Notes: generated from the letters alone by a model not told the origin. A DNA stretch of 64,000 bases from an uncultured Coprobacillus sp. (GCA_964385755.1 CAYLPZ010000006.1:7468-71467); one strand, 5' to 3'. Shown: positions 46,173 through 63,746, counted from the first letter of the stretch. A program made the numbers and translations.

Positions 46173-49100
46173 CTATAACCAAAAACGCTTTTTAATAAAT
46201 ACAAATAGCACAACTAAACTTGCTAAAGCAGTAACTGCTGTAGCAGCTAAACCTACTTTGTTAACATTAGTTGTTGGTAATGTATTAATTTCATTTACAA
46301 CATCAATATCTTCATTTAAATTACTAAAGTATTCATCAAAACCTTTTTTGAAGCTATCAACTGTTTTCGTATCAAGATATTTCTTGTCATCTCTATCAAC
46401 AATCTTTAATGCTTCAACTATTTCATAATAAGTTGAAAGTTTATTAAAGTCATATGTAGGACCAAGATTATTAATGTTTTCAATAATATGACTATAATTC
46501 TTATTAATTCTAATCATATTAATTTCATTCCATTTAGCTTCTGCGTTTTCAAGTCTTTCTAATAAACTATCAAGATATTCTTTTGTATATCCATATTGTG
46601 TTAAATCTTGAGTAACTAAATTATAAGCTGTTCTCGCATCTTTGATAATTTGTTCATCTCCAATCTTAACATCGTCAGGAATTAAACTTACTTTATCTAA
46701 ATAGTTTATTGATTTACTATCTAATGCCACATAATCACTTTTTATTACATTATCAACATTAAAATATAATCTGTAAAGCATATCTTTATATGTTTCATCT
46801 ATAGCATTTGTTGGAATAATTAGATTCATCTTTTCAGCTAAACCAATCATATCTTTAAATTGACCATAATAAAGTGGTGTTGCACCATTAAATAAGAAAT
46901 ATTTATTTAATTCTTTATAGATTTCTGAACTTGTGTCATATGATATATCATTAGTAGTGATTGTTCCTTCTAAAATTGGAGCAGTAGTTGACTTAAACTC
47001 AATAGTTTTTAGATTAACACTACCATAAAATGCCATATTACCAATTAACTTTAAAGTATCTGGGAAAATTAGTTTAATAATTCTACGATTAAAATATCCA
47101 GCATATTCACTAATTCTAACGGTATTAAATAGTACTTCATAAGTCTCTGATGGTTTTGCGGTTGGATATGCACTTAGTGAATATTTCCCGTTTTCATTTG
47201 TTGTATAAAGAACACCATCATCTAATCTTACATAATCATTTATTACACATGTATCATTTCTAGATAAATCTGTAAATCTAACTTGATTTACATTGTAGTA
47301 GAATGCTGTAGGAGCAATATACTTAACTGTACTTGGTAAGTTTATCTCACTTACCGCAATGCAGCTTAATGCCTGAGCATCAATTACTTCTACTTTTGGC
47401 ATGTATACAGCTTCAAGATTAGCACAAGATAAGAAACTACCAGGTGCAAGTTTAATGACATTTGGAAGATTAACAGTAATTAATGATTCGCATTTATTAA
47501 ATGCTTGCATCGATATTTCAATTACACTATCAAGTGATATTTCTTTTAGTGCTACACAGTTCATAAATGCTGCTTCTTTGATATATCTAACATCATTTAT
47601 TATTACACTTTGTAATTTTTCATCATCAAGAAATGTTCCTTCATTTATGCATTCTAAAATACTAGTTGTTTCAAATGTTTCTAGAGACAAACAACCAGAG
47701 AACGCATAACTTCCAATAGTATTTAAGCCCTTTCCGATTGTTACATTAGATAGCATATCTGCATAAGAGAATGCATAATCACCAATAATCTTTAGTGTAT
47801 CAGGAAGAGCAATAGCAGTTATTATATTTCCTCTTGCTTGATTTACCCCCGCAAACGCATAAGACCCAATTTCTTCAATGTTAGGAATATTAATACTTTC
47901 TAAATTTACACAGTCTGAAAAAGCATAATTACCTATTACTTTTACTTCTTCTAAATAAATATTTATTAAATTAATACATCCAAAGAAAGCTCCTTCTAAG
48001 ATTTCTTTGGTTTTTCTTAATGATACTGAACTTAAAGATTCATCATTATAAAAAGCATGAGCACCCACAGTATTTACTTCTAAATCTACACTACTTAAAT
48101 TTTTACAATTTGCAAAAGCTTCGTTTCCAAGGCTCTCAATTTTTCCTGTTACCTTTGTTAGGTTTTGACAGTCCATAAATGCAGCTTGTGAAATGATTAC
48201 ATCATCATTAAATTTAATAGATTCTAGTTTTGTTTTCGCAAAGCAATATGGAGCAAAATATAAAACCTTGTCAATATTTACACAATTTACTAATCCACTT
48301 TCTTCGAAAGCAGATTCGTTTAAAGTTACATTTTCAGCCAATATTACGTTTTCTAAATTATTGCAATTAGCAAAGGCATTACTACCAATTACTTTTACAT
48401 TAGCTAAATCAATAGAATATAGATTATCAAGTCCACTAAAAGCACCTTCATAAATCTCTTCTACTTTACTATCTAAAGTTACAAATTTATTATCTAATGC
48501 TTTTGGAGCTACTAAATATATAACTTTATTGTCTTTTGAGAGTAGATAACCACCATTAAAATTATAATATTGGTTTTCTAAAGAAACATCAAAAGTACTT
48601 AAGTTATTTGAGCCACTGAATACTTCACCATAGTTCTTAGTTATTCTTGTGTTATTATTTATTGTTACAATTTCTAAATGAGGGCAATTTGCGAAAGCAC
48701 GTTTCTCTAAAACCACATCACTATTCGGCATTGTAACTTTTTGTAAATTACTACAATTTTCAAATGCAGATTCATAAATAAATTCACAAGAAACATCTTC
48801 AAATATTACTTCTTCTAAAGCATCGCAATCATTAAATGCTTTAGAGCCAACGTATACTAAATTATTGTGAATAGTTACTTTTGTAAGTAAATCACAATTT
48901 TCGAAACAATTACTTGGGATTCTATCATTATAAATATCAAGTATAGATATACTTGTATTTGCAAACATTAAGTCAGCTAAATTTGTATATTTACCGATTA
49001 TTACCTCTTTTAAATTAATACAGTTATTGAAAGATTCAATACCACCATTAATTAATGAAGTAATGTCAACAAATGTTAAACTTTCACAATCTTTAAATGC

Positions 49101-52100
49101 TGCCTCACCAATTGCATACACGCTAGTTAAATTAACTGAAGAAAGTGCTTTACAGCCCATGAAAGCAAAAGAACCAATCAACTCAACATCATCAAGATTA
49201 ATGTCTGTTAATTTTTCATCCCCCGCAAAAGCATATTCTTTGATAAATGGACAAGATGTACCATCATTATCTTTTAAGAAATTAACTCTTTCTAGTGCTG
49301 TACAATTATAAAAAGCATATTTTCTCACTTCTTTAACATCAGCAGGGATAGTTACACTTATAACTGTATCATTTGTACAAGGAGTTTTCGCAGAATCATA
49401 ATCATCATTTTTAATTTCTATTTCATAATCTGTTGTATATAGTGAAAATGCAAAAGCACCAATGTATAAAATGCCTTCATCATCAGGGATTACTACATTT
49501 CCACCAATACCTTTATATGCTACTAATACATTACTTTCAACAATAAATTCATTTTTAACAACTACTTTTGTAGAAGCCATTAAAGTTGATTGTCTTCCTC
49601 CTACTTTTACCTTTAAAGAGATAGTCGCATTACCTTCTTTAAGAGCAGTCACTACACCATTTTCATCTACTGTCGCAACTTTTTCATTTGTAGAAGACCA
49701 AATTAGTTCATAGTCTTTTAAGTTCCAAGGTTTTAATTCATAATTTAGTTTTACCTGTTCGCTTGGATAGAATGACACAAATTCCTTATCCGTAAAGAAG
49801 AAATGATCACCAGCTTCACCAATCTCTGATTCTTCTGGTCCATTAGCAAAAGCTTTGATTGTTTCAAAGTAAGTAAAGTTAATATCTGTAAGCTTATCTG
49901 CACCAGTTTCAACTTCCTTATCTCTTACTTTAATTTTCAAATTAACTGAATAAGAATATCCATCACTTGCAAGCGCGTAACAACTAATTGTTGCAGTACC
50001 AGAACCAACTGCTTCAATTTCTCCATTATTTACTTTTATTATATTTTCATCTGATGTTGTCCATTTTAATGTTGAAAAATATTTATTTTGATTATCTACA
50101 TCACTAGAAATAGTTGGATCATCAGATGTCAACATTTCATTTAAATTTAAAATATCACCGACAGAAATATTTTTAAAATATTGATAAGTGTTACCTGATA
50201 CACTTGAGTAGTACTTTTCTTGATATTTAATGTTTTGTGAATTAGTACCTGGAAGTGTAACAAAGGCATAACTTTGATTTAATGCATAATCATCAACAAA
50301 AAATCCAAGACCATTAGATAAGTTGACATTTTTATCTTCCATTGAACTATATTGAATTAAATCCATATAATCCGTTATTTCTACAGTCACTTTTGTCTCT
50401 TCATTCTTTTCGCTATAAACAGGTATTGCGTAATCACCAAGTGATACTACTTTTCCATCAATTAATGTGAATGGTCTAATAGATTGAGTATAGTGATTAT
50501 CATATACATAAACATCAACATAATAGCGATAATCTTTTAATGATTTATCATACTTAGTGTAGAACTGTGCGTCAGTAATTGTAGGAGCTTGATAATCCAC
50601 ATAGAACGAGAATTCAAATGTGTTATTAAGATTTGTATTTAGTCCACCATCTTGATAATCAAGTTCTGCTACCATACTGAATGAATATTTTGTATTATTT
50701 TCTAAACCAAGCTCAGCAGCAGTTACATTCAATATTTCATAGTTTGGAACTATTGATCCACTAAAATATGCTTTACGAGCATCGTATTTAATATGTTCAT
50801 AAACTTCTTCACCGGTATACTCATTAATTATTTTATATGTTACCTTTTTAGCATTTCTTAAAAGACCAGCATACACTGTGGTAACTCCATTAATCGTATC
50901 TAAGTAATATCCCACAGCAGCATGCTCTTCTGATGCAGGAATCTTATCATATTTACTTTCATCAATTTCATATACATATGTTCCTAAAGGAATAACATAA
51001 CTATAATAGTATCTTCCTAAAGGAGTTGAAGCGTAATAATCAGCTTTAAGTTTATCTTCTTCATCAATTGCGCCATTATATGCTTCACTTTCAACTTCAT
51101 AGTATGTTTTATCAAACATTGGTGCAGCTGTCCAATCGCCAAAGAATGCAAGATAAGGAATTGATAAATCAATACCATCTTCATTAAGTGACTCTAAAAC
51201 ACCATAACCTTCTACATACATTCCGTTAATAAATGATTTTCTAATGTATGCTTTTTCATCATCAGTTAGTTTAATCGTATATGTAACTTTTACAGTTCCA
51301 TTTTCATTAACAGTTAGAATATCTCCATCTAATACACCATCACCTGTAATTTGTGCTAAAGTATTTGGGTTTAACATATATGCTTTTTCAGCAACGTATT
51401 CTGGGTCTGATGTTGATAAAGATTCTGTCATTGTTAAATCTGTAAGTTTATATTTTAATTTTTCATTTGATGTATTATGAACATTGAAATTAAGTACATA
51501 AACTCCAGTTTCTTCTTTATCATCTTTTAATTCTAGTTTTGGTTTTGTTTGGCCATCAACTGATAAATAAGCTTTTGTGTTAACAGCATACTCAAGATTC
51601 CCAAGACCAGATCCTTGCTTTCTAGGTGAATAAGGATTACCTTCTTCATTAAGAATAATAGTTGCGGTTGACATTAAAAGCGAGTTTGCCATATTTGTAA
51701 GTTCTGGAGAAGTCATATATGGATATCTTTCTTTTAAAGCTTGTTTTACTAAAATAACAACGCCACAAAGATTTGGGCTAGCCATAGATGTTCCAGATAT
51801 TTTATCATATCCTCCACCTGGGACAGATGAAGTAATTGATCCTCCATGAGCAGTAATTTCTGGTTTTAATGCTAAATCAGATACAGGTCCCCAGCTTGAG
51901 AAATCAGACATAAAAGGACCAGCTAGATAGCTCTTATCAAATGTAAGAGTTCCACTACTCTTAGCTGCTAGATATTCACCATCATCTTTTGAGATAGAAC
52001 AAAGTGGAATATCTAAATGACTTCCAGCATTCATATATACATCACCGGAAATATTATTATAAATAATACAACCAATCGCTCCTTGTGCTAAAGCAATTTG

Positions 52101-53636
52101 TGCTTTTTCCTCAAAACTAGTTTCACCACGCTTAACTAAAGCAATCTTCCCCTTAACATTTATACTTGAATAGTTAACTTTTTTTCCAACTCCTGGCACA
52201 GTAACATATTCAAGTTTTATAACTTCTTTTGTGGTATTTACTTTATCAAATAACATCTCATAGAAATCATAAGGATTGCCTGCACTGCTATTTGCATTAT
52301 TAAAGAAAAATGTATAACCATTTTCATCAACGATATATTTACTCTTTTCACCACTAATTGAAGCAACAGAAATAGTCGATGGATAAGTAGAAGGTGATCC
52401 AACTGTTGCGGAGTCAGGATTAGATGCTTTATTTGTATTACTATTAGCACCTCCATAGCCAGATGAATAATCATTGCTCGCCGCAACAACTAAAGAAATA
52501 CCAGCTTTTTCAATGTTGTTATATACAACATTTACATAGTCATTCTCACGAGAACTAGAAAAGCCACAAGCAGTTCCTAATGATAAGTTAATTGCATCAA
52601 CACCAATCAAAATAGCATCTTCCAAAGCAGCTAGAATATCAGATTCTATTGCACCTTGATTAAAATCACCAAATACTTTCATTAATACAAGTTGAGTATT
52701 AATAGCAACACCAGTAATTACGTCATCTTTACCACCAATGATCCCCGCAACATGTGTACCATGGTTAGAATCATAAGGAGACACATCACTATCTTTATCA
52801 GCATAGTCATAAGCAAATGGAATTTTAGCGTTCATATATACATCTTGAACTTTGATATTTTCAAAATATCTATAAGCTCTTGTGTTTTGTAATATACTAT
52901 CAATATAATTCATTGAAAGCATTGTTTCTTCTGGCATGTTTTGAAATACAGTATGGTGAATATCAAAGCCAGAGTCAAGAATCGCAACAGATGTATTAGA
53001 GCCATCAAAATCTACATTACTTGAATCGAAGATACCAGTGTCATATACTTTCACAAAGTTAGTTACAGCATCATAACTACTAGTTCCATCATCTTCAGTA
53101 GTTTGATAATCAGGTTCTGAATACACTTCAGAAATAAATGCATTAATATTATAATCGCTACTCATTAATTTCTTATACTGTCCATAAGTTGTTTGAGCAG
53201 AAAAACCGCTTAAAATAGTAGTAAATGAATGATCAACACTTTGGATGTAATTCTCACTTATTAGCTTTTCTGCTAATGTATTTTGTTCAGAGAACATTTT
53301 TTCTTTGAGATAATTAGCATAGTCACTTGTAACATAATCTCTTACATTACTATAACCGTTATTATCATTATTATAACGATCTAACAAACTAATAGATTTA
53401 GTAGTGATAACAATATTAATCTTATCACCATCATCAAGTTCATTAAGTTCATATAAATATTCTTTATTAAGATACTTAGTGTTATCTGTCATCTCCGCAA
53501 TCAAATCAGCGTGCTCGACATTTAAACTAATTTTATCATTAACTTTTTCACTTACATCATTAATTCCACAAGAGATACAAACAAATCCTAAAAATATAGT
53601 TAGTACTAGTAATGTAATCTTTCTTTTAAACTTCAT
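46173..53636 (-). CDS. Cell-surface S8 (lactocepin/C5a-peptidase-like) serine protease with I9 propeptide, PA, Fn3/Ig, a long BspA-type LRR stalk and a C-terminal TM
   Basis: Catalytic triad AILDSG, NHGTHVAG, SGTSMASP; PA domain KGKIALVKRGE..FEEKA; SSWGP..KPEITAHG; many IGxxAFxxCxxL repeats; lipobox CISC; C-terminal hydrophobic helix plus KKR. Confidence 0.92.
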   Translation of the reverse strand: MKFKRKITLLVLTIFLGFVCISCGINDVSEKVNDKISLNVEHADLIAEMTDNTKYLNKEYLYELNELDDGDKINIVITTKSISLLDRYNNDNNGYSNVRDYVTSDYANYLKEKMFSEQNTLAEKLISENYIQSVDHSFTTILSGFSAQTTYGQYKKLMSSDYNINAFISEVYSEPDYQTTEDDGTSSYDAVTNFVKVYDTGIFDSSNVDFDGSNTSVAILDSGFDIHHTVFQNMPEETMLSMNYIDSILQNTRAYRYFENIKVQDVYMNAKIPFAYDYADKDSDVSPYDSNHGTHVAGIIGGKDDVITGVAINTQLVLMKVFGDFNQGAIESDILAALEDAILIGVDAINLSLGTACGFSSSRENDYVNVVYNNIEKAGISLVVAASNDYSSGYGGANSNTNKASNPDSATVGSPSTYPSTISVASISGEKSKYIVDENGYTFFFNNANSSAGNPYDFYEMLFDKVNTTKEVIKLEYVTVPGVGKKVNYSSINVKGKIALVKRGETSFEEKAQIALAQGAIGCIIYNNISGDVYMNAGSHLDIPLCSISKDDGEYLAAKSSGTLTFDKSYLAGPFMSDFSSWGPVSDLALKPEITAHGGSITSSVPGGGYDKISGTSMASPNLCGVVILVKQALKERYPYMTSPELTNMANSLLMSTATIILNEEGNPYSPRKQGSGLGNLEYAVNTKAYLSVDGQTKPKLELKDDKEETGVYVLNFNVHNTSNEKLKYKLTDLTMTESLSTSDPEYVAEKAYMLNPNTLAQITGDGVLDGDILTVNENGTVKVTYTIKLTDDEKAYIRKSFINGMYVEGYGVLESLNEDGIDLSIPYLAFFGDWTAAPMFDKTYYEVESEAYNGAIDEEDKLKADYYASTPLGRYYYSYVIPLGTYVYEIDESKYDKIPASEEHAAVGYYLDTINGVTTVYAGLLRNAKKVTYKIINEYTGEEVYEHIKYDARKAYFSGSIVPNYEILNVTAAELGLENNTKYSFSMVAELDYQDGGLNTNLNNTFEFSFYVDYQAPTITDAQFYTKYDKSLKDYRYYVDVYVYDNHYTQSIRPFTLIDGKVVSLGDYAIPVYSEKNEETKVTVEITDYMDLIQYSSMEDKNVNLSNGLGFFVDDYALNQSYAFVTLPGTNSQNIKYQEKYYSSVSGNTYQYFKNISVGDILNLNEMLTSDDPTISSDVDNQNKYFSTLKWTTSDENIIKVNNGEIEAVGSGTATISCYALASDGYSYSVNLKIKVRDKEVETGADKLTDINFTYFETIKAFANGPEESEIGEAGDHFFFTDKEFVSFYPSEQVKLNYELKPWNLKDYELIWSSTNEKVATVDENGVVTALKEGNATISLKVKVGGRQSTLMASTKVVVKNEFIVESNVLVAYKGIGGNVVIPDDEGILYIGAFAFSLYTTDYEIEIKNDDYDSAKTPCTNDTVISVTIPADVKEVRKYAFYNCTALERVNFLKDNDGTSCPFIKEYAFAGDEKLTDINLDDVELIGSFAFMGCKALSSVNLTSVYAIGEAAFKDCESLTFVDITSLINGGIESFNNCINLKEVIIGKYTNLADLMFANTSISILDIYNDRIPSNCFENCDLLTKVTIHNNLVYVGSKAFNDCDALEEVIFEDVSCEFIYESAFENCSNLQKVTMPNSDVVLEKRAFANCPHLEIVTINNNTRITKNYGEVFSGSNNLSTFDVSLENQYYNFNGGYLLSKDNKVIYLVAPKALDNKFVTLDSKVEEIYEGAFSGLDNLYSIDLANVKVIGSNAFANCNNLENVILAENVTLNESAFEESGLVNCVNIDKVLYFAPYCFAKTKLESIKFNDDVIISQAAFMDCQNLTKVTGKIESLGNEAFANCKNLSSVDLEVNTVGAHAFYNDESLSSVSLRKTKEILEGAFFGCINLINIYLEEVKVIGNYAFSDCVNLESINIPNIEEIGSYAFAGVNQARGNIITAIALPDTLKIIGDYAFSYADMLSNVTIGKGLNTIGSYAFSGCLSLETFETTSILECINEGTFLDDEKLQSVIINDVRYIKEAAFMNCVALKEISLDSVIEISMQAFNKCESLITVNLPNVIKLAPGSFLSCANLEAVYMPKVEVIDAQALSCIAVSEINLPSTVKYIAPTAFYYNVNQVRFTDLSRNDTCVINDYVRLDDGVLYTTNENGKYSLSAYPTAKPSETYEVLFNTVRISEYAGYFNRRIIKLIFPDTLKLIGNMAFYGSVNLKTIEFKSTTAPILEGTITTNDISYDTSSEIYKELNKYFLFNGATPLYYGQFKDMIGLAEKMNLIIPTNAIDETYKDMLYRLYFNVDNVIKSDYVALDSKSINYLDKVSLIPDDVKIGDEQIIKDARTAYNLVTQDLTQYGYTKEYLDSLLERLENAEAKWNEINMIRINKNYSHIIENINNLGPTYDFNKLSTYYEIVEALKIVDRDDKKYLDTKTVDSFKKGFDEYFSNLNEDIDVVNEINTLPTTNVNKVGLAATAVTALASLVVLFVFIKKRFWL

Positions 53637-53831
53637 ATTTACTCCTTTTTAAAAGCTATTTATCAATTTGTCAAAAATAGAGTATATTGGTCTCTATTCT
53701 AATTATTTTATCATATTTTGCAATAAAATTCAATCATTAATAATTTATGTAAAATATTCATAATTAAATGATATTATTAATAAACAAATATTTCCGTTTT
53801 ATTTAATATATTTCATTAAATAATATAAAAA

Positions 53832-53852
53832 AAATGCTCATAATCAGCATTT
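53832..53852 (-). terminator. Weak terminator-like hairpin upstream of the protease operon
   Basis: aaatgct/agcattt stem with a minus-strand T run. Confidence 0.35.
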
Positions 53853-54035
53853 ATATTAAGACTTTGAATTGGAATAAAAAGACAACATCATTAAAGATGC
53901 GATAACTTCAGGGGAAGATTATTTTAAATTAAAATGATTATTAGTATTTTCCTATTTCTTTATATTATTTAACAAAAGCTTAGATCAAAATTCTCACTTT
54001 CCATAATCTTCCTCTTTTCATAAAACAATAAAAAA

Positions 54036-54061
54036 AGCATCTACCATTTTTGATAGATGCT
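54036..54061 (-). terminator. Intrinsic terminator
   Basis: agcatcta.ca / tg.tagatgct stem followed by T6 on the minus strand. Confidence 0.7.
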
Positions 54062-54383
54062 AAATTTCTAACACGATTTTTTATTCAAACATGGCTAGTT
54101 TCTTCGCTGAACATCTCCTTTTGACTTCCTTTATATCTTTTTTATCGGATTTATCATCGCTTTTTACTAGTCTTCTAATGGGCATTTAAATAAGGGATAT
54201 TAAAAGGACAATAGATATGCATAGACAATAGTCTATCATCCTTATTTATTATAAGCAAATTGTCATATACGCAGGAATACAAATAATTCCTTTTTCTCTA
54301 ATTTTTAAATTTTTAGGATGAATAATATAACAAGCACTTATTTTTTTAAAAAAACATTGAACTAAATCTTTTAAGTTAAGTTG

Positions 54384-54630
54384 TTAGTATTCTTTTGAAA
54401 TTTTAGCTTCAATTGAAGATATCTTTACATTTGTTTTATCTCCACTAATAATTATAAAGTCTATTTCTGTGTCGTTTCTATGTTTTTCTTCATTGTAATA
54501 ATTATAAAAATAGAGCCTGCTAGTCGTATCCAATGAAATAATTTTTACTCTTTTATTTTCATCTATTTTTGCAAAGGTTGTAATAATGATTTTTCGAACA
54601 ATACCTTCGCAAAAACTTTTTTTATAATTA
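54384..54630 (-). pseudogene. Remnant of an AAA/DUF4143-type protein C-terminus
   Basis: Start-less open frame ...SRLYFYNYYNEEKHRNDTEIDFIIISGDKTNVKISSIEAKISKEY*, resembling the LYYY..EIDF..PIEVK nuclease-like tail. Confidence 0.35.
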
Positions 54631-54681
54631 TTAAATATAGCCTAAAAATTCAATAAATATGCAAAATAAATATGCATCTTT

Positions 54682-55533
54682 TTATTTAATCGAAATAATA
54701 TTACTAAACCCTGTTAGATTTAATATATCAATTATGTTTTCATTTGCGTTAATTATTTCTAATGTTTTGTTTACACATTTTTTCTTAAGTTTCAATATAA
54801 CTCGAAGACCAGCACTAGAAATATATCTTAAATCTTTCGCGTTAATAATAACACTATCCAGAATATTTGCTTCTGTTATTACTTTTTCAAATTCATCTGC
54901 ATTAGTTGCATCAACATTACCAACTAGAGTAATTAAAGTGATGTTATTATCATATGCAATGTTCATTTGATTATTATTTTCTTTTTTGTAAATTTCTTTT
55001 TTTCCAAATACTTCATCAAATTGTTGTTTTAATTCCTGATACATTTTTAAATGGTTAAAGCGTTTAAAAACTTGAAGATATTCTAAATATAGCCACTCTT
55101 GTTTTTCTTTTCCTCTTTTAAATAAACTCCAAACGCTATCACCATCTTTTTGTAAGGCATAATTAATATCTAAAATATTTGATAATTTATCAGCTAAGAT
55201 TAGCATTGCACAATCATCATCACAACTTTCTAATGCTTTTAAAGTTGTTGTTTTTCTTTCTTCCCATGTTTTTGATTTATCTTCAGTATCAAACATTACA
55301 ATGTTATATACTTTTTCACCAAATTCTTTTTTTATTACATCCGGTGATACATGAGCATCTTCTACTGTATCATGTAAAAATCCCGCCGCAACAACTTCAT
55401 TACTAGCCCCATTTTCAAGTAGTATCATTCCAACAGAAACAGGATGTAGAATATATGGAAGACCACCTTTCCTTACTTCCCCTTTATGTACATTTGAAGC
55501 AAATAACAATGCTTTACGTTTTATATCATTCAT
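54682..55533 (-). CDS. RelA/SpoT-type HD hydrolase (Mesh1/SAH-like) fused to a STAS anti-anti-sigma domain
   Basis: HKGEVRK..PYILHP, LHDTVED, ADKLSN; C-terminal GNVDATNA..YISSAGLRVIL..LTGF. Confidence 0.85.
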   Translation of the reverse strand: MNDIKRKALLFASNVHKGEVRKGGLPYILHPVSVGMILLENGASNEVVAAGFLHDTVEDAHVSPDVIKKEFGEKVYNIVMFDTEDKSKTWEERKTTTLKALESCDDDCAMLILADKLSNILDINYALQKDGDSVWSLFKRGKEKQEWLYLEYLQVFKRFNHLKMYQELKQQFDEVFGKKEIYKKENNNQMNIAYDNNITLITLVGNVDATNADEFEKVITEANILDSVIINAKDLRYISSAGLRVILKLKKKCVNKTLEIINANENIIDILNLTGFSNIISIK

Positions 55534-55542
55534 AATTAGTTA

Positions 55543-56718
55543 TTAGAAATATAGTTTATCTACCTTTCCCACATTATTTTCTATTTTATTTATATAAAAT
55601 TTTAGAAGTTCTTTTCCTTCCTCTGTATTTTCAAGATTATATTTATGAACTCTACGAATAATACGTGCACCAGTTAACATTTCAATTTTTGTGACTACAT
55701 CATCAATTAATTGCTTATTATTATCAAAATAAACATTTAAAAATTTATTCCACATTTTAACAGTTGTTTCATAAGTTAAACCATAAAAATCAAGGGCATT
55801 TTGATGATTAAACATTGAATAACCAACAAATCCCGCATATACACTTGCTAGATCAAATATAGGATGACCAACAGATACTGTATCCATATCAATAAGTATT
55901 GGTCCATCTTCATCATACATTACATTATTTGTATGATAATCACCATGTATTAATACTTCTGAAACTGGTATTTCAGAGACTAATTTACTTAGCTTTTCAT
56001 AAGACTTTTCTGAGATAATTCCTTTTGTTGCCTTAACCCAAGTAATACCTTCTTCTTTAATTGATGGAAACTCATCAGTAGTTGCTTTTACCTCATGAAT
56101 TTTCTTCAAAAACTTAGCAAATATTTCCACGTAATAATCCAGTTTTTCACTATCTTTCGCAATTAATTTACTAATTGATTTTGCATTTAATAGTTCAACT
56201 ACATTGCCATAGAAATCTCCAACTTTAACAATATCATAAGGGATTGCGGAATTGATACCTTTCATAAATACTTTTCTACATAACTCACGTTCATTTTTGA
56301 TTTCTTCTAGTGGTGAGTTCTTATAAAATACTTTAACAATCGTCTCAGCATCATAACGATATATTCTTCCTTTTGCTCCTTGCGCAATTACTTCACATCC
56401 TTCAATTGATAATTTTCTAAATGCTTTTTCTACTGTTAATAATTCTACAAAACCTGTCATATCAAAGATATTATATATCTCATTTGAAACATTGATTACT
56501 TTTAATTCACTAACAGTTTTACGAAGTCTTAATAAAACACGGAGCCCAGCACTTGAGATGTACTCTAAGTTTTCAGCGTCAATAACAAATTCTTTGCCTT
56601 CATTTTCTTTAACTAGCGTTCTTATTCTATCTTCTGCTTCATTTGCGTTTGTTGCATCTATGCGACCAATTAACTCAATTACTAATAATTCATTTTCTAT
56701 TCTTCCTTTAATTTCCAT
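55543..56718 (-). CDS. STAS domain fused to an aminoglycoside/choline kinase-like phosphotransferase
   Basis: GRIDATNA..YISSAGLRVLL..MTGF; then IAQGAKGRIY, IVKVF, LIHGDYHTNNVM, LIDMD. Confidence 0.85.
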   Translation of the reverse strand: MEIKGRIENELLVIELIGRIDATNANEAEDRIRTLVKENEGKEFVIDAENLEYISSAGLRVLLRLRKTVSELKVINVSNEIYNIFDMTGFVELLTVEKAFRKLSIEGCEVIAQGAKGRIYRYDAETIVKVFYKNSPLEEIKNERELCRKVFMKGINSAIPYDIVKVGDFYGNVVELLNAKSISKLIAKDSEKLDYYVEIFAKFLKKIHEVKATTDEFPSIKEEGITWVKATKGIISEKSYEKLSKLVSEIPVSEVLIHGDYHTNNVMYDEDGPILIDMDTVSVGHPIFDLASVYAGFVGYSMFNHQNALDFYGLTYETTVKMWNKFLNVYFDNNKQLIDDVVTKIEMLTGARIIRRVHKYNLENTEEGKELLKFYINKIENNVGKVDKLYF

Positions 56719-56728
56719 ATATACTCCT

Positions 56729-58387
56729 TTATTTTCTCTTTATGACAAGCATTGTAATATCGTCAAATTGTGGAGTTTCCCCACAAAAACTATCAATTGA
56801 AGTTTTAATGTTATTTACAAGTTCCTTTGTAGAATTGCATATATTATTATTACTTACTTCCAAAATACCTTTTATTCCAAATTGTTCATTTTTATGATTA
56901 ATTGCTTCGGTAACACCATCCGTATATACTAAAAGCATTTCGTCTTTTTCTAATGTATATTCATGATTTTTATATTTCATATTAGGAAAACACCCAATAG
57001 CTAACCCATGTTTAGTTTCATACACTTTGGCTTTTCTATCTTTTGATATTATAATTGGGTCTTCATGTCCAGCGTTTGCAGCGATGACTTTACCTGTTGA
57101 TATTTCCAAAATAGCAAACCATACAGTAACAAACATATCCTCTTGGTTGTTGTTAGAAATCTTATTGTTTAACTCTTCTAATACCTTAGCAGGGTCATTT
57201 ATTAAAGTAGCAAGATTACTTGTTAATATCTTAGTTACCATCATAAATAACGCTGCTGGAACACCTTTTCCAGATACATCACCAATAGTGAGTGCTAAAT
57301 GATCTTCATCAAGAAGATAAAAATCAAAATAATCACCACCAACTTCTTTTGCTGGGGACATTAACCCAAATAAATCAATGTCATTGCGCTCAGGGAATGG
57401 TGGAAATACACTTGGTATCATCGTTTGTTGAATTTTTGTTGCTAGGTTCAATTCTGCTGCTATTCTTTCTCTTTCACTAGTTAACTTCTCTAGTGTTTTT
57501 ACACTGTTAACAACATCTGTTTCCAAGTGACGAAGTGATTTCCATATTGTATTTAATTCGGTAATTTTACTTATTGTACTAATATTTTCTTCTGAAATAG
57601 TTCCACTACCAGCAAAACGTTTTGCTTCCAAAATTATTTTCTTAACTGGATTAGAAAATTGTTTAATACAATATAATATTCCTAAGCAAACTAAAATTAC
57701 TAAGTTTCCAAGCATAGTTAATGTATTTATTCGCAAAAAATTTGATATTAAGCTTTGTAACCCACTCATTTCTCTTTGTACACAAGTTATTGCCACTACA
57801 TCACCATTATTATCCAAAACTGGAGATAAAGCTGTAATGTGGGGTGGTTTACCATTTAAATTGCTTGTTCTTACAACTAAACCATTTTCAATATTCTTTT
57901 CATATAAATCTTGATATATCTCTATATAATCACTCGTACTTTCACGACTAAATCCTAATTCCCATGGTGTATAGCCATATGGATTGTTCTCTATCACTAC
58001 ATTAAACACACTATAGAAATTATTATAATTATTCCCTTTAAAAGTTATAACATATAAAAGAGTTACTTCTTGCTTCTGACATAAATGATCAAGGTTTTCT
58101 AGTGTTTCTAAATAATTGCTATCATTTTTATAATATTCAGTATCTGATATATATTTTTCTATATTGCTGCCATCAATAAAATCATTTGCGGTATTTGCTA
58201 CATTAAGAGCATATTCGAAATATACATCTTTCATTGATTTATTAATTTCCACATAACCAATAATACAAGCAACAGCATTAGAAAACAATAAAATCATTAT
58301 TATGAAGAAAATAAGCCTAAAGTTTATACTATTTACTATTTTTTTTACTTTCATTTTTTTCGTATTTTTCTTCATACTTTTAATCAC
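56729..58387 (-). CDS. Membrane sensor PP2C/SpoIIE (RsbU-like) phosphatase with a HAMP domain; start may be 58375
   Basis: TM - extracellular domain - TM - HAMP; ELNLATKIQ, PAKEVGGDYFD, IGDVSGKGVPAALFM, FVTVW, NAGHEDP, YTDGVTEA, FDDITML. Confidence 0.9.
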   Translation of the reverse strand: MIKSMKKNTKKMKVKKIVNSINFRLIFFIIMILLFSNAVACIIGYVEINKSMKDVYFEYALNVANTANDFIDGSNIEKYISDTEYYKNDSNYLETLENLDHLCQKQEVTLLYVITFKGNNYNNFYSVFNVVIENNPYGYTPWELGFSRESTSDYIEIYQDLYEKNIENGLVVRTSNLNGKPPHITALSPVLDNNGDVVAITCVQREMSGLQSLISNFLRINTLTMLGNLVILVCLGILYCIKQFSNPVKKIILEAKRFAGSGTISEENISTISKITELNTIWKSLRHLETDVVNSVKTLEKLTSERERIAAELNLATKIQQTMIPSVFPPFPERNDIDLFGLMSPAKEVGGDYFDFYLLDEDHLALTIGDVSGKGVPAALFMMVTKILTSNLATLINDPAKVLEELNNKISNNNQEDMFVTVWFAILEISTGKVIAANAGHEDPIIISKDRKAKVYETKHGLAIGCFPNMKYKNHEYTLEKDEMLLVYTDGVTEAINHKNEQFGIKGILEVSNNNICNSTKELVNNIKTSIDSFCGETPQFDDITMLVIKRK

Positions 58388-58802
58388 TTTCTTTTAAAAA
58401 CTTCTTTATTCTTAAAACGTTCTTATTATCTAAATAATTATATATAACTTCATCCATTAGATTTTTAACCATATAAATTCCTAAGCCACCGATAGGTCTA
58501 TCTTCAAGTGGTATATCAAAGTTTGGATCATCTTTTAAAAGTGGATTATATTCTACTCCTTCATCAATAAAAGTAATTTCAACCACATCATCATCACAAT
58601 TAACTTCAATATATACCTTACCATCACCTTGCAAATAAGCATATTTTGCTATGTTTACAAATATTTCCTCTGCTGCTTCTTCTAACGCAAATCTTTCTTT
58701 GAAATTGCAACTAGTATCATCTAATATTTCATTTAAAAACATTAATACAGAGCTAAGATTTTCAACTTTTGCATTTATTTCTAGTTTTTTTGCTATACTC
58801 AT
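58380..58802 (-). CDS. Anti-sigma factor / Ser kinase (RsbW/SpoIIAB-like HATPase); start at 58802
   Basis: EEIFVNIAKYAY (N box), IDEGVEYNP, GGLGIYMV; GAGG RBS before MSIAKK. Confidence 0.88.
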   Translation of the reverse strand: MSIAKKLEINAKVENLSSVLMFLNEILDDTSCNFKERFALEEAAEEIFVNIAKYAYLQGDGKVYIEVNCDDDVVEITFIDEGVEYNPLLKDDPNFDIPLEDRPIGGLGIYMVKNLMDEVIYNYLDNKNVLRIKKFLKESD

Positions 58803-58815
58803 ATTTATATCTTCC

Positions 58816-59118
58816 TCAATTAATAGTAACAATATCAATAAAACCAGTAAGTTTGAATACATTAATTATTTCATTAGGCATATTTACAATTTCAAATTTT
58901 ATATTCATTTTTTTAGTTTGTTTTACAAATAACAATACCACTCTAAGACCAGCACTTGAAATATAATGAAGTTTAGTAAAATCAAAAATTAATGATGTTA
59001 TATCATCTGTTAAAATATCATTTACTCTTTCTTCAAGAAGCATGTAGGTCTGAGTATCTAATCTTCCATCTAAATAAACTTTACAAACTTGATTTTCTCT
59101 TTCTATAATTATATTCAT
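58816..59118 (-). CDS. Stand-alone STAS anti-sigma-factor antagonist (RsbV/SpoIIAA-like)
   Basis: GRLDTQT, LHYISSAGLRVVL, VFKLTGF; 100 aa. Confidence 0.9.
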   Translation of the reverse strand: MNIIIERENQVCKVYLDGRLDTQTYMLLEERVNDILTDDITSLIFDFTKLHYISSAGLRVVLLFVKQTKKMNIKFEIVNMPNEIINVFKLTGFIDIVTIN

Positions 59119-59142
59119 ATTTATACCTTCTTCTTATTACTT

Positions 59143-59171
59143 ATTATATCACACTTTGAAAATAAACTCAA
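59143..59171 (-). promoter_or_regulatory. Sigma-A promoter of the partner-switching operon
   Basis: Minus strand TTGAGT - 17 nt - TATAAT with an extended TG (TGaTATAAT). Confidence 0.7.
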
Positions 59172-59430
59172 AAAGTAAACTAGCGTTGATAAAAATAATA
59201 ATTAATTGTTAAAATTTATGTCATCTAATAATATCATCATTACACTCTTTTAAAAGTGGAAAATTGGTTATCACATCATAGTAAAGCAATATAAGATGAT
59301 CTATCAGTTTCGCAAAATATTGCACGCATTGATTCAAATGGTACATTAGATATTTGGCTATTTAATAAAATAAAATATCAGCACCATACTTAACAAAACC
59401 CGTACACTTTTTATTGTTTATTAAAATAAA

Positions 59431-59465
59431 ATCCGATTCATAATCAAATAACTATGTAATCGGAT
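59431..59465 (-). terminator. Terminator after the CotH-family gene
   Basis: atccgatt.cata / tatg.aatcggat-type imperfect inverted repeat with A/T flanks. Confidence 0.55.
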
Positions 59466-59472
59466 ATTTTTT

Positions 59473-61137
59473 TTATTTCTTTCTATTAAATGTTGCAACT
59501 TTCAAAGTCATATAAACTTCAATACTTAGATTCCAATCACCATAAGGTTCATTATTTTCTGTTAAGCTAAATAAAACATCATCATTAATAAATAAATCTC
59601 CTAATGTTAGATCATCATTATAATGAGTGGATACAAGATTATAATAATTTTTAAAATTATCAATACTCATTAATCCTTTATTAATTACTTCTTCAATTTT
59701 TTCAATATAATCAGCTTTAATTTGACTATTTCCTTTATTAACTCCATCACCACTATCAATGATAGTTTTATGGAATAACGGATTATATGTTCGAGAGTAA
59801 CCTGTTTGTGGAGAAGCAGGTCCGTTGTCGGTACAAAAGTCACCAGTAGGATTACCACCTGGTCCTCCAGTTGAACCAAATGCTCTATCGTGATCTGTTG
59901 GAATAAAGATTATTTTATTTACTTTTCCTTCTTGAGGAACAAAATACACATATGTATTATTGTGATTTCCTCTTAGATCATCCGGGTCACCAATTAAATA
60001 TGATAACGCCAAATATGTTACATAATAATCATAGTAACTATACTGCGTCATAACATTATAAATAGTAGATGAATTTGCATTAACTAAACATTTAATGAAG
60101 TTCTTTATATCAACATGAGTTGATGTCTTTTTGTTTGTTTTTAAATCATATGGGTATTTTTTAGCGTAAAACGTCCCATCATTATTAGCAAATTGTTTTT
60201 CAACTCCAAACAAATAATCATCATATCTTTCAAAGGTTGCTCCTTCATTACTCCATCCAAGTTTATATAAATCACCAGAAGTATAATCTTTTAACATATT
60301 TCTTTTTAAGAAATCTTTATCAATGGTTTCAACCATTAAATACACTCCCGCATTTTGTTTATCACCACTAATATTCATAGTAACATTAGCAAGATTAGTT
60401 CTTGGTGCTAAAAGGCCCATAGCACGATACAGTTCATATGCGTATGCTTCCTTTAGATATGTTGCATCCTTATTTCGATTAAATCTAATATCTATTTTCT
60501 TAAGTCCAAAAAGAGATCTTTCTTCAAGGTAAGCAAGTAAATCATCACTCAAATCATAACTATCTTTTCTGTAATCATCATCAAAAGTTTCTGAAAAACT
60601 AAGTTTATAGTGCCTCAATTGTATTTTTCCATCATTAGTTACGATTTCTCCTCGTGAAGTATTTCCTTTTTGTCTTATTCCAACATTTTCAAAATGAATA
60701 ATAATATTATTAAAAGCAATGTCTACTGAACAAATGCGATACGACTCCTCATTTTTAACTAAATGATAATCAGACATTTTTTTAAGTTCACCTTTTGTTA
60801 TATTAATATTAAACTTAACTTCATTATTAAAATCAAATAAATCCAATAATCCTTGCTTGTATTTTGTTTGGAAAATGTCATTCATTTTGCCTTTTACTTC
60901 TTCACATAATTTATCATAATTATATTTTAATTTACTTTCACTAATATTTTTTAATGTGGCAATATAATCTCCATACCCCAATTCATACTTTACAACATTT
61001 TCTAAGGTATCAGGGATAACAGGTTCTTCCTTTTCATCATTAGAATCGTTATTAGATAAATTACATCCAGCTAATAATATATAAGTAACTACTATCAGTA
61101 GATATAATAGATATTTTTTAATTTTTCTTATTTTCAT
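59473..61137 (-). CDS. CotH-family atypical kinase, lipoprotein
   Basis: Lipobox LAGC; GIRQKGNTSR, HYKLSF, LKEAYAYELYRAMG..APR, GVYLMVETIDKDFL, NNTYVY, IPTDHDRAFG. Confidence 0.85.
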   Translation of the reverse strand: MKIRKIKKYLLYLLIVVTYILLAGCNLSNNDSNDEKEEPVIPDTLENVVKYELGYGDYIATLKNISESKLKYNYDKLCEEVKGKMNDIFQTKYKQGLLDLFDFNNEVKFNINITKGELKKMSDYHLVKNEESYRICSVDIAFNNIIIHFENVGIRQKGNTSRGEIVTNDGKIQLRHYKLSFSETFDDDYRKDSYDLSDDLLAYLEERSLFGLKKIDIRFNRNKDATYLKEAYAYELYRAMGLLAPRTNLANVTMNISGDKQNAGVYLMVETIDKDFLKRNMLKDYTSGDLYKLGWSNEGATFERYDDYLFGVEKQFANNDGTFYAKKYPYDLKTNKKTSTHVDIKNFIKCLVNANSSTIYNVMTQYSYYDYYVTYLALSYLIGDPDDLRGNHNNTYVYFVPQEGKVNKIIFIPTDHDRAFGSTGGPGGNPTGDFCTDNGPASPQTGYSRTYNPLFHKTIIDSGDGVNKGNSQIKADYIEKIEEVINKGLMSIDNFKNYYNLVSTHYNDDLTLGDLFINDDVLFSLTENNEPYGDWNLSIEVYMTLKVATFNRKK

Positions 61138-61179: not shown

Positions 61180-61950
61180 TTAACTTTGAATCAATAACCA
61201 TTCTAATAATTGAGCTAAAAAACAATAAATATTATTCACTTGTAACATATTTACTTGATCTATTGTATCACGACTTGTGTGCATATAATAAGCAAAGTCA
61301 GGTATAATTTCCGGTTTTTTATTTTTTGCATATTCATTAAACCACTGTAAATCTTTTGTGGTTGAACTAACTATATAATAAGTTTCGATTCCTTTTTCAA
61401 TAAAAGAACTAGCATCACCAGGTGGTAATAATTCAATTTGTTTAACATCAAATTTCTCAAATGAATTAATAAAATACAAAAAATTATCTTTTTTTATCTT
61501 ATTTAAATTACTTATATTTACTAAAACATGTTTACCACTTCCGCACATATCTAAATTAATAGCACTTTTAATTTTATTTATATTTTGGCTACAATAGAAA
61601 CTACTTCCAATCAAACCTTTTTCTTCTAAATCAGTAAACACAAAATCTATATTCGCGTTAATTTTTTCTTTATAGTCAATTATTAAATTTAATAAAATAG
61701 CGCATGCACAGGCATTATCAATAGCACCAGGATTATTAAGAATATTATCGTAATGAGCACAAAACACTATTTTCTTATCATTAATATTTTTTTCATTATA
61801 AAAAGGTACAATAATATTACCAAGACTATCATAATTTATAATTTTTTGAATAATGTATTTAACATTATTTCTTTCAAGATTAGTTATTATTGCCTCAAAT
61901 CTCTCTTTTTTGTTTGTCTTAGCGATTTGCTCTATATATTTTTTCATCAT
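61180..61950 (-). CDS. M28-family metallopeptidase
   Basis: CAHYD, GAIDNA, DLEEKGLIGS, INLDM, YMHTSRD; the zinc ligands are present. Confidence 0.85.
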   Translation of the reverse strand: MMKKYIEQIAKTNKKERFEAIITNLERNNVKYIIQKIINYDSLGNIIVPFYNEKNINDKKIVFCAHYDNILNNPGAIDNACACAILLNLIIDYKEKINANIDFVFTDLEEKGLIGSSFYCSQNINKIKSAINLDMCGSGKHVLVNISNLNKIKKDNFLYFINSFEKFDVKQIELLPPGDASSFIEKGIETYYIVSSTTKDLQWFNEYAKNKKPEIIPDFAYYMHTSRDTIDQVNMLQVNNIYCFLAQLLEWLLIQS

Positions 61951-62120: not shown

Positions 62121-63698
62121 TTATTTTGTAGTGTAAGGAATACCTTTTGACTCACAATATTTTGCGGCAGGAGAATTGTTATTGCACACAACAGTTACAT
62201 TGTTACAACCGCTTAACATACCCCAACCATATTCAATAACACTATCTGGGATAACAAATCTCTTAAGTGATGAACATCCACGAAAAGCAGAATCATCAAT
62301 GCGTATAATTGAATCAGGTAATACAAGTTCTTCTAGTTCTGTACAGTTACAAAATGCGCCTTCACCAATTTCTGTTACACTATCAGGAATTATTATATGT
62401 TTCAAATTGCTACCATAAAATGCCCAGTCACAAATTAGCATAACAGAATCAGGTATTTCATAGAAATCTTCACCATCATTTACAGCATAGGAAATAAGAG
62501 AAGATTTATTCTTATTAAATAGTACGTTATTTACTGTTTTAAAGAATTTATTTTTACTATCGACTTCAACAGATCTAAGGCTTGTACAACCACGGAAAAC
62601 GCCATAACCTATATTATTTACTTTTTGTGGAATATAAATATCTAATAAACTTTGGCAATCCTTAAAAGCATTCTTACCAATTTTATTTAAATCAGAGTTA
62701 AGCTTGATTGTTTGTAAATTCAAACATCCACTAAACACCATATCATCAATCTTGGTAACAGGATCAGGAATAACAATTTCTTTTAATTGTGCACAATCAG
62801 CAAATGCACTTTCTCCTAAAATTGTAAGCTTTTCAGGTAGTTTTATTGTTTCAAGTGATTTACAACTATTAAATACACCACTATATAGTTCTGTTATACT
62901 ATTTTCAAGTTCTATATTTTTTAAAGAAGCACAGTTTTCAAAACAACGTTCACTAATTTCTAATCCATCACCAACTACAGTAAGTGACTTAAGAGATACA
63001 CAATCACGGAATGCACTTTCTCCTACCTTTTTTATATTGCTTGGTAAATAAACAGATTTTAAAGACTTGCAACCACGAAAAGCTTCTTTATTGATTTGTG
63101 CTACTTCTTGACCAAAATCAATTTTTTCTAAGCTTTCACAATTCTTAAATGCATTATTTCCGATAATGCGTACACCTGAAGGAATAGCTAGAGAAGTACT
63201 ACCATCCTTGCATTTTACAAGTACATCTCCTTCAGTTTGTAAGCTACGCATTGTCTCTATTGGTAACCCAGAAATCAATTTATAAATATATTTTTCATCA
63301 TTTTGATTTTTTAAGTGTTGAAGATTTTCTAAAATCATTTTTAGTGGTGCAGGGATCTGTACTGATTCATTAAGATACACTGGGTAGATTTTTTTATCAT
63401 ATTTGTATGCGGTAATAATTTCCATTCCACAATATTTTGAAGCCATAGAAGCATCAGATATAAAGATTAAAAACGCAGAACAATTTACTATTCGGCTACG
63501 TAATTCTTCACGAAAATCTTCTCCAATTTCCATTGTATCATCATACCAAAATCTATACTTTTCTTTCTCAATTATTTTCAATATCTTATACACTTCTTTT
63601 GTATCCGCATGAGAATAGCTAACAAATATATATGGTTCATTACCATCATACGAATCAAGATTCAACTGAGTTATTTCTTTGTTTAAATTTTCAACCAT
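62121..63698 (-). CDS. TIR domain fused to about 13 BspA-type leucine-rich repeats; start at 63698
   Basis: GGAGGGG RBS; TIR IFVSYSHAD..FWYD..FLIFIS..SKYCGMEI..IYPVYL; 23-aa repeats of the type IPxxVxxIGxxAFxxCxSL; no signal peptide or TM. Confidence 0.88.
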   Translation of the reverse strand: MVENLNKEITQLNLDSYDGNEPYIFVSYSHADTKEVYKILKIIEKEKYRFWYDDTMEIGEDFREELRSRIVNCSAFLIFISDASMASKYCGMEIITAYKYDKKIYPVYLNESVQIPAPLKMILENLQHLKNQNDEKYIYKLISGLPIETMRSLQTEGDVLVKCKDGSTSLAIPSGVRIIGNNAFKNCESLEKIDFGQEVAQINKEAFRGCKSLKSVYLPSNIKKVGESAFRDCVSLKSLTVVGDGLEISERCFENCASLKNIELENSITELYSGVFNSCKSLETIKLPEKLTILGESAFADCAQLKEIVIPDPVTKIDDMVFSGCLNLQTIKLNSDLNKIGKNAFKDCQSLLDIYIPQKVNNIGYGVFRGCTSLRSVEVDSKNKFFKTVNNVLFNKNKSSLISYAVNDGEDFYEIPDSVMLICDWAFYGSNLKHIIIPDSVTEIGEGAFCNCTELEELVLPDSIIRIDDSAFRGCSSLKRFVIPDSVIEYGWGMLSGCNNVTVVCNNNSPAAKYCESKGIPYTTK

Positions 63699-63746
63699 AA
63701 TTCCCCTCCAAAAAATTAACATATATATTTAATGGTTTACATTTAG

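Follow-up and report, generated by a model that had tools for sequence, protein, structure and literature searches.

Partner switching is textbook sigma-factor control. In the RsbU/RsbV/RsbW-SigB and SpoIIE/SpoIIAA/SpoIIAB-SigF systems of Bacillus subtilis, it involves a STAS-domain antagonist bearing an acceptor serine, a GHKL serine kinase and a SpoIIE-type PP2C phosphatase. Partner switches independent of a sigma factor also exist, HsbA-HsbD being one of them. Others have been established or predicted, namely SiaABCD and PP2C/kinase/STAS sets encoded near cyclic di-GMP enzymes (PMC9239204; PMC7647112). In Pseudomonas aeruginosa, a membrane sensor PP2C and a partner kinase of SiaABCD steer a nucleotide-messenger enzyme without any sigma factor (PMC7647112), and SiaC, which binds the diguanylate cyclase SiaD, is a protein in its own right (PMC9239204). 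In the CapK/CapS pair, an anti-sigma-type kinase directly phosphorylates a STAS-domain effector (PMC13373217). The Anabaena STAS-glycosyltransferase All4160, the only multidomain STAS example outside SulP/SLC26 transporters given in a 2021 review of STAS-only proteins (PMC8256260), was reported in 2026 to be under the control of a PP2C, HenR, and a kinase, Alr3423 (bioRxiv 10.64898/2026.04.08.717354). The present analysis concerns an operon found in a stretch of 64,000 nucleotides of DNA from an uncultured Coprobacillus sp. (GCA_964385755.1, CAYLPZ010000006.1:7468-71467), the whole of which is referred to as the window. The operon is fairly likely to be a self-contained, sigma-independent cassette of the partner-switching type, whose kinase and PP2C would set the phosphorylation state of two enzyme-fused STAS domains and thereby control both enzymes.

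A five-gene operon with three STAS domains

The operon consists of five tightly packed genes on the minus strand (59118-54682). In gene order, they are:

58816-59118, minus strand: free STAS, 100 amino acids (PF01740 62 bits, TIGR00377 62.7 bits)
58380-58802, minus strand: RsbW-like GHKL serine kinase, 140 amino acids (PF13581, HATPase_c_2, 77 bits)
56729-58375, minus strand: membrane PP2C/SpoIIE phosphatase, 548 amino acids (PF07228 172 bits)
55543-56718, minus strand: STAS-APH, a STAS domain fused to an APH-fold phosphotransferase, 391 amino acids (PF01740 51.5 bits; PF01636 67.3 bits against a cutoff of 23.2)
54682-55533, minus strand: HD-STAS, a RelA/SpoT-type HD_4 hydrolase domain fused to a STAS domain, 283 amino acids (PF13328 52.5 bits against a cutoff of 27.2; PF01740 45 bits)

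The intergenic gaps measure 13, 4, 10 and 9 nt in gene order, the kinase start being taken as 58802. The mechanical open reading frame (ORF) of the kinase begins at 58862. The ATG at 58802 is preceded by a GAGGAAG ribosome-binding site and independent gene calls give a protein of 140 residues, hence its choice as the true start. Both the order of the five genes and gaps of 13 nt or less had been described in an initial annotation made from the sequence, and these measurements bear them out.

The three STAS domains share the acceptor motif. A six-frame translation of the window contains SSAGL exactly three times, once per STAS domain and each time within YISSAGLR, in agreement with the initial annotation. 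Identity among the domains is only 33-38% and the codons of the motif differ among the copies, which indicates that it was kept by selection and does not reflect a recent DNA duplication. When aligned with HMMER to SpoIIAA (1auz, 1th8), the second serine of ISSAGL sits on SpoIIAA Ser58, the known phospho-acceptor. The predicted acceptors are Ser55 of the free STAS (codon 58956-58954), Ser56 of STAS-APH (56553-56551) and Ser240 of HD-STAS (54816-54814). All three domains score above the PF01740 and TIGR00377 cutoffs. In related loci, the acceptor position is a serine in 134 of 134 STAS segments (44 free, 71 STAS-APH, 14 STAS-APH-RsbW, one HD-STAS-APH and four HD-STAS). It is also invariant in alignments of homologues that were not picked by a motif pattern. 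No other STAS, RsbW-like, PP2C, APH or HD_4 gene was found elsewhere in the 64-kb window.

The kinase has an intact N box (E46..N50), G1 motif (D80-x-G) and G2 motif (GGLG105), all conserved in four orthologues. Its best solved relatives are RsbW (6m36) and SpoIIAB, and its scores lie under the RsbW/SpoIIAB equivalog cutoffs of NCBIfam (39.3 against 145 for NF003144, 33.6 against 155 for TIGR01924 and 21 against 135 for TIGR01925). The phosphatase begins with a K/R-rich N-terminus. Its hydropathy delimits a first transmembrane segment (residues ~17-45), an outside domain (~46-215) and a second transmembrane segment (~216-238), beyond which a long coiled linker leads to the PP2C domain (330-548). 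The metal-binding Asp motifs GGD348, GDVSGKG, TDG487 and DDIT541 are all invariant. Foldseek matched the phosphatase to the PP2C domains of SiaA (TMt 0.86), RssB, Rv1364c, RsbX and SpoIIE, the whole-protein search being dominated by the PP2C domain. The segment of ~170 residues between the transmembrane segments should lie outside the cell as a sensor domain, in line with the extracellular input proposed in the initial annotation. In the AlphaFold2 model (predicted local distance difference test, pLDDT, 86.7), this region forms a long helix followed by an alpha/beta unit. Its fold may tentatively be described as Cache/PDC-like: the order of secondary structures fits such a fold, and dCache_1 is matched at E = 0.014 only.

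The phosphotransferase domain of STAS-APH contains a G-loop (GAKG117), K129, E143, HGDYHTNN258-265 and IDMD276-279, and residues K129, E143, H258-G-D260, N265 and D277 are invariant in 32 homologues. The protein scores 129.8 bits on TIGR02172, below the cutoff of 228.2; its relatives are still labelled 'TIGR02172 family' by JGI. Foldseek retrieved generic small-molecule kinase folds only (MTR kinase, APH(2''), 25-hydroxysteroid kinase), and the closest match of a STAS-APH profile in the PDB is hygromycin kinase (E = 5e-5). In HD-STAS, the HD domain covers residues 1-185 and the motifs H30, H54-D55, E58-D59 and D115..N119 are present. The closest solved relatives of this domain are Lmo0812 (4yf1, E = 7e-32), then the small alarmone hydrolases (SAHs) 7qoe and 7qoc, and Mesh1. 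HD-STAS can thus be described, from its sequence, as a putative SAH-like enzyme with intact catalytic residues. With 283 residues it departs from the size of single-domain SAHs (180-200 residues), nearly all its relatives having ~180. This architecture is rare: among 1.84 billion representative proteins, three clusters span HD and STAS, namely the HD-STAS cluster P0003 (67% identity) and the HD-STAS-APH fusions P0241 and P0351.

Recurrence of the cassette and its genomic surroundings

A survey of synteny, which the initial annotation had proposed as a check, found the same parts in the loci L003, L008 and L007 and in a wider set, where fusions also occur. L003 and L008 contain all five genes and L007 four. 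Contigs of two sequencing runs encode identical proteins. The nearest genome matches are metagenome-assembled genomes, one of an uncultured Anaeroplasma (L007) and one labelled Staphylococcaceae (L008), with STAS-APH proteins of 72-73% identity. The flanks of the cassette differ each time (Asd gene, ABC transporter, GH31 glycosidase), so that it behaves as an autonomous unit. Between orthologues, conservation is best for STAS-APH (71-74% identity) and the PP2C (61-74%) and lowest for the free STAS (57-62%). In L007, a 137-nt spacer without a free STAS gene lies between the glycosidase gene and the kinase gene, and the kinase retains all its motifs despite this absence. The fused STAS domains would therefore be the sole local kinase substrates in L007. 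A search from the PP2C side retrieved the three-gene operon L089, in which a sensor-PP2C-RsbW fusion is followed by an SAH and then by STAS-APH, again with no free STAS. It can be argued from these two operons that the free STAS is not essential.

The STAS-APH family is abundant. The best 120 clusters (49-99% identity) all consist of STAS and APH domains with a length of ~391 residues, and a metagenome scan yielded at least 578 relatives that were confirmed, the majority from the gut or rumen and with a G+C content of 25-65%. The full-length sensor-PP2C is itself a large family. Source annotations describe STAS-APH proteins only as 'uncharacterized protein (TIGR02172 family)' or 'anti-anti-sigma factor', and a literature search found no paper on TIGR02172, STAS-APH, STAS-fused SAHs or the combination of STAS, APH and SpoIIE. 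When 88 related loci were scanned with the window's own domains, the parts of the cassette were often found fused. A STAS-APH-RsbW triple fusion occurs in 14 loci, usually beside a PP2C and a free STAS, and a PP2C-RsbW fusion in at least 10. An SAH gene lies immediately upstream of STAS-APH in 12 loci, and L067 encodes an HD-STAS-APH triple fusion like those of P0241 and P0351. Among the 18 STAS-APH loci with at least 3 kb on each side, 12 have an RsbW-like kinase, nine a PP2C, 11 a free STAS and four an SAH; an RsbW-like gene, a PP2C gene or both are found in roughly two thirds of them. In L094, a PP2C-RsbW fusion and an HD-STAS-APH triple fusion flank a 235-residue ORF (L094:5372-6079) that matches nothing in Pfam or NCBIfam and may encode a further part of the system.

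Two groups of loci have other neighbours. A PHP phosphoesterase gene adjoins the 3' end of the STAS-APH-RsbW gene in nine of the 11 loci with room for it (L018, L020, L023, L025, L026, L032, L036, L038 and L047; e.g. L018:8590-9429), and no SAH is present there. In NCBIfam, the PHP protein comes closest to 3',5'-nucleoside bisphosphate phosphatase and RNase RNM, in both cases with a score below cutoff. In the Oscillospiraceae loci L091, L092 and L093 (e.g. L091:1479-7617), close homologues of the sensor-PP2C (~42-45% identity) accompany an RsbW-like kinase and a free STAS. These clusters also hold a PAS-Guanylate_cyc cyclase, one or two cyclic nucleotide (cNMP)-binding proteins and an AP_endonuc_2/CbiR-like protein. 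In these loci, the same kind of input seems to be connected to a different nucleotide output.

The borders of the operon in the window are marked by three features:

59423-59465, minus strand: terminator-like hairpin with U-tract, 3' of the upstream CotH-like gene (RNA fold z = -2.9)
59143-59171, minus strand: sigma-70-type promoter-like site (TTGAGT, 17 nt, extended -10 TGnTATAAT; 10/12 matches plus TG)
54565-54616, minus strand: long hairpin without U-tract, ~65 nt past the last stop codon (fold z = -2.3)

The hairpin and U-tract that end the CotH-like gene fit with the operon being a separate transcription unit. The initial annotation had credited the operon with its own promoter. A promoter-like site does exist, and a similar TGTGATATAAT element is found in the upstream spacer of the orthologous operon L007. 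Nevertheless, such sites are not enriched over shuffled sequence in the AT-rich DNA of the window (G+C 25-33%), and the site is therefore a candidate promoter only, recognized by its consensus match alone. A terminator scan detected no intrinsic terminator past the last gene; the hairpin at 54565-54616 is a possible weak 3' end. The Rfam scan of the whole window retrieved no RNA family.

Directly upstream of the operon, 59473-61137 (minus strand) encodes a CotH kinase-family protein with a lipoprotein-like signal sequence, itself next to an M28 peptidase gene (61180-61950). Further upstream, 62121-63722 (minus strand) encodes a protein of 533 residues with an N-terminal TIR domain (weak ThsB-like PADLOC matches) and BspA-type leucine-rich repeats (LRRs); no ThsA-like partner was seen nearby. 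On the other side, ~1 kb past the operon (53637-54681) is devoid of any ORF of at least 50 residues. A 49-residue fragment (54384-54533, minus strand) reading ...EIDFIIISGDKTNVKISSIEAK looks like the C-terminal remnant of a decayed gene, presumably of the ATPase/DUF4143 type. It is followed by the gene of a predicted surface protein of 2487 residues (46173-53636, minus strand), with a lipoprotein-like N-terminus, a C-terminal transmembrane anchor, subtilisin S8 and PA domains, Big_2 and many BspA-type LRRs. At 1534-2511 (minus strand), a gene of the choloylglycine (bile salt) hydrolase family (CBAH E = 8e-105) agrees with an intestinal origin. All ORFs of at least 150 residues that are not nested in a longer minus-strand ORF are on the minus strand except 14578-15039, and the GC skew is negative in every 2-kb bin of the window. 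Both agree with a long run of genes whose orientation follows replication on the complementary strand.

A proposed switch and its alternatives

Since two enzymes of the operon carry the usual target domain of the kinase, the targets of the switch are probably enzymes and not a transcription factor. A direct coupling of the kinase and phosphatase to the enzymes, as had been claimed in the initial annotation, is supported by the recurrent fusions, by L007, which lacks the free STAS, and by the serine found in 134 of 134 segments; the phosphorylation of the fused domains itself can only be inferred. Fusions and synteny suggest a functional pairing of the STAS-fused enzymes with the kinase and PP2C, for which the following scheme is proposed. 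The RsbW-like kinase would use ATP to phosphorylate Ser55 of the free STAS, Ser56 of STAS-APH and Ser240 of HD-STAS. The membrane PP2C would strip the phosphate, its activity being set by a putative signal acting on the ~170-residue extracytoplasmic sensor domain. The phosphorylation state of each STAS domain would then tune the attached enzyme, i.e. the APH-fold kinase or the SAH-type HD phosphohydrolase, either allosterically or through whether the kinase stays bound. The free STAS would compete for the kinase and phosphatase and so buffer or sharpen the switch. The output would be a shift in the pool of a phosphorylated metabolite or nucleotide, and not the release of a sigma factor.

Several observations weigh against this scheme. 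Five of the 18 well-flanked STAS-APH loci have no RsbW-like kinase, PP2C, free STAS or SAH. For STAS-APH, the invariance of the serine in the metagenome set involves some circularity, since one of the two scan patterns was LE[YF][LI]SSAGLR; the free STAS domains of that set were not selected through the motif. The AlphaFold2 model of STAS-APH is poor (pLDDT 71) and its kinase N-lobe is unresolved, so that it says nothing on how the STAS domain contacts the catalytic domain. In identity to the HD domain of the window, the SAHs associated with STAS-APH range over 31-56% and unlinked SAHs of Bacillus over 41-49%. The values of 31-56% do not support a single dedicated SAH subfamily tied to STAS-APH; as the linked SAHs do not form one tight subfamily, the association may have arisen more than once. 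A switch by sequestration fits equally well, and the kinase may bind a sigma factor whose gene lies in another part of the genome.

Sequestration is the main rival of the proposed scheme, of which it is a variant, and appears rather unlikely. The kinase would hold the enzymes, inactive or active, through their unphosphorylated STAS domains until dephosphorylated free STAS displaces them; the fused STAS domains would replace the sigma factor, and their phosphorylation would be secondary or absent. The gene set indeed mirrors RsbV/RsbU/RsbW plus a target, the free STAS is present in three of the four close orthologous operons, and the STAS-APH-RsbW loci L023, L028, L036 and L047 still encode a free STAS and a PP2C. 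On the other hand, L007 and L089 dispense with the free STAS, which is also the least conserved gene of the cassette, and the acceptor serine is invariant in the fused domains, where a docking module would not need it.

It is improbable that the operon is a classical anti-sigma module, in which the kinase would sequester a sigma factor encoded elsewhere, the three STAS domains would be antagonists, and the enzymes would be passengers or feedback elements. Sigma genes are not always linked to partner-switch genes. The kinase belongs to the RsbW/SpoIIAB superfamily, and the search for a sigma factor covered the 64-kb window and the flanks of related loci. Nevertheless, scanning the operon, its neighbours and the window's ORFs of plausible size revealed no domain of the sigma-70 family, as the initial annotation had noted for the locus. 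No sigma family was matched by at least two members among 101 flanking ORFs of 21 related loci, and the clustering of neighbours across related loci gave no sigma-like group. A distant sigma partner elsewhere in the genome is thus unlikely. The kinase is also far under the RsbW and SpoIIAB equivalog cutoffs, and its domain is often fused in cis to PP2C or STAS-APH, as would be expected of a kinase acting within the module more than of a diffusible anti-sigma factor.

Phosphorylation is absent from many STAS domains, including those of SulP/SLC26 transporters and of MlaB (PMC8256260; PMC7367683). The fused STAS domains could likewise be dimerization or ligand-binding (e.g. nucleotide) modules without phospho-regulation, the linkage merely reflecting shared expression control, and the five well-flanked loci without a kinase or PP2C neighbour would agree with this. 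It is nonetheless very improbable: the motif is of the SpoIIAA/RsbV type with an invariant serine, the STAS part of the STAS-APH model superposes best in Foldseek on SpoIIAA taken from its kinase complexes, and fusions of this domain with the kinase recur. A role in toxin-antitoxin function or anti-phage defence, with the SAH neutralizing a toxic nucleotide product, might be suggested by the TIR-LRR gene 3 kb upstream, by the differing contexts of the cassette in related genomes and by one report describing some SAHs as antitoxins to toxic alarmone synthetases (PMC9765508), but it is hardly credible and was set aside because PADLOC models match none of the five operon proteins; moreover, the window has no RelA/SpoT synthetase domain, and the family is chromosomal, widespread and equipped with sensor-type membrane inputs.

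Within the proposed scheme, nucleotide chemistry is hinted at by the adjacency and fusion of SAHs to STAS-APH, by the PHP neighbour and by the cyclase and cNMP-binding proteins of the Oscillospiraceae loci. An unlikely extension of the scheme is that one phosphorylated small molecule, most plausibly a nucleotide, is produced by the APH-fold kinase and degraded by the linked phosphohydrolase, and that the partner switch sets the balance of the two enzymes reciprocally through their STAS domains. The phosphohydrolase would be the SAH in this operon and the PHP-type nucleotide phosphoesterase in the sister clade. If true, gut and rumen anaerobes would commonly possess a messenger or alarmone-like pathway that had escaped notice until now.

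The locus belongs to a large and unstudied set of modules of gut and rumen anaerobes, in which kinase/phosphatase chemistry appears to act on STAS-bearing enzymes, among them a protein of the (p)ppGpp-hydrolase type. Its most interesting aspects are the size of the STAS-APH family, its systematic embedding in kinase/PP2C modules and its possible link with alarmone or nucleotide metabolism. If confirmed, the proposed switch would link an extracytoplasmic signal post-translationally to pools of alarmones or other phospho-metabolites and would assign a function to the 'TIGR02172-like' STAS-APH proteins, which are very common. With only five genes, it would also be a convenient system in which to study the regulation of a catalytic domain by phosphorylation of the STAS domain attached to it.

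Comparison with known systems

Contrary to the RsbU/RsbV/RsbW and SpoIIA switches, the operon of the window has no sigma factor and its kinase is not an RsbW/SpoIIAB equivalog. Two of its three STAS domains are fused to enzymes, and its PP2C carries an extracytoplasmic sensor. The PP2C and RsbW-like kinase of Mycobacterium tuberculosis Rv1364c (PDB 3ke6) are on one polypeptide, as in the PP2C-RsbW fusions of the related loci, whereas they are encoded by separate genes in the window. Rv1364c is linked to SigF regulation and has no enzyme output. The known SAHs (Lmo0812 4yf1, 7qoc/7qoe and Mesh1) share with HD-STAS an HD_4 domain with all catalytic residues; they are single-domain proteins, in contrast with the C-terminal STAS found here.

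Among the sigma-independent systems, nothing is fused in SiaABCD, and the PP2C of the window scores 46.7 on the SiaA equivalog NF038263, against a cutoff of 700. No GGDEF domain was found in the scanned ORFs of the window. CapK/CapS differs by its anti-phage context and by having neither a PP2C nor an enzyme output. The closest precedent is HenR/Alr3423/All4160, which likewise combines a SpoIIE-type phosphatase, an RsbW-type kinase and a STAS domain N-terminal to an enzyme, without a sigma factor. In that system, the enzyme is a glycosyltransferase, the genes are dispersed and the phosphatase is controlled by a receiver domain, whereas the operon of the window encodes two different STAS-fused enzymes together with a free STAS and a membrane-sensor phosphatase. 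The initial annotation set this signalling logic apart from sigma release; to call it unlike anything known would be overstated, since SiaABCD, All4160 and CapS precede it. The components are known already, and the operon wires them in its own way within a kind of logic that has these precedents.

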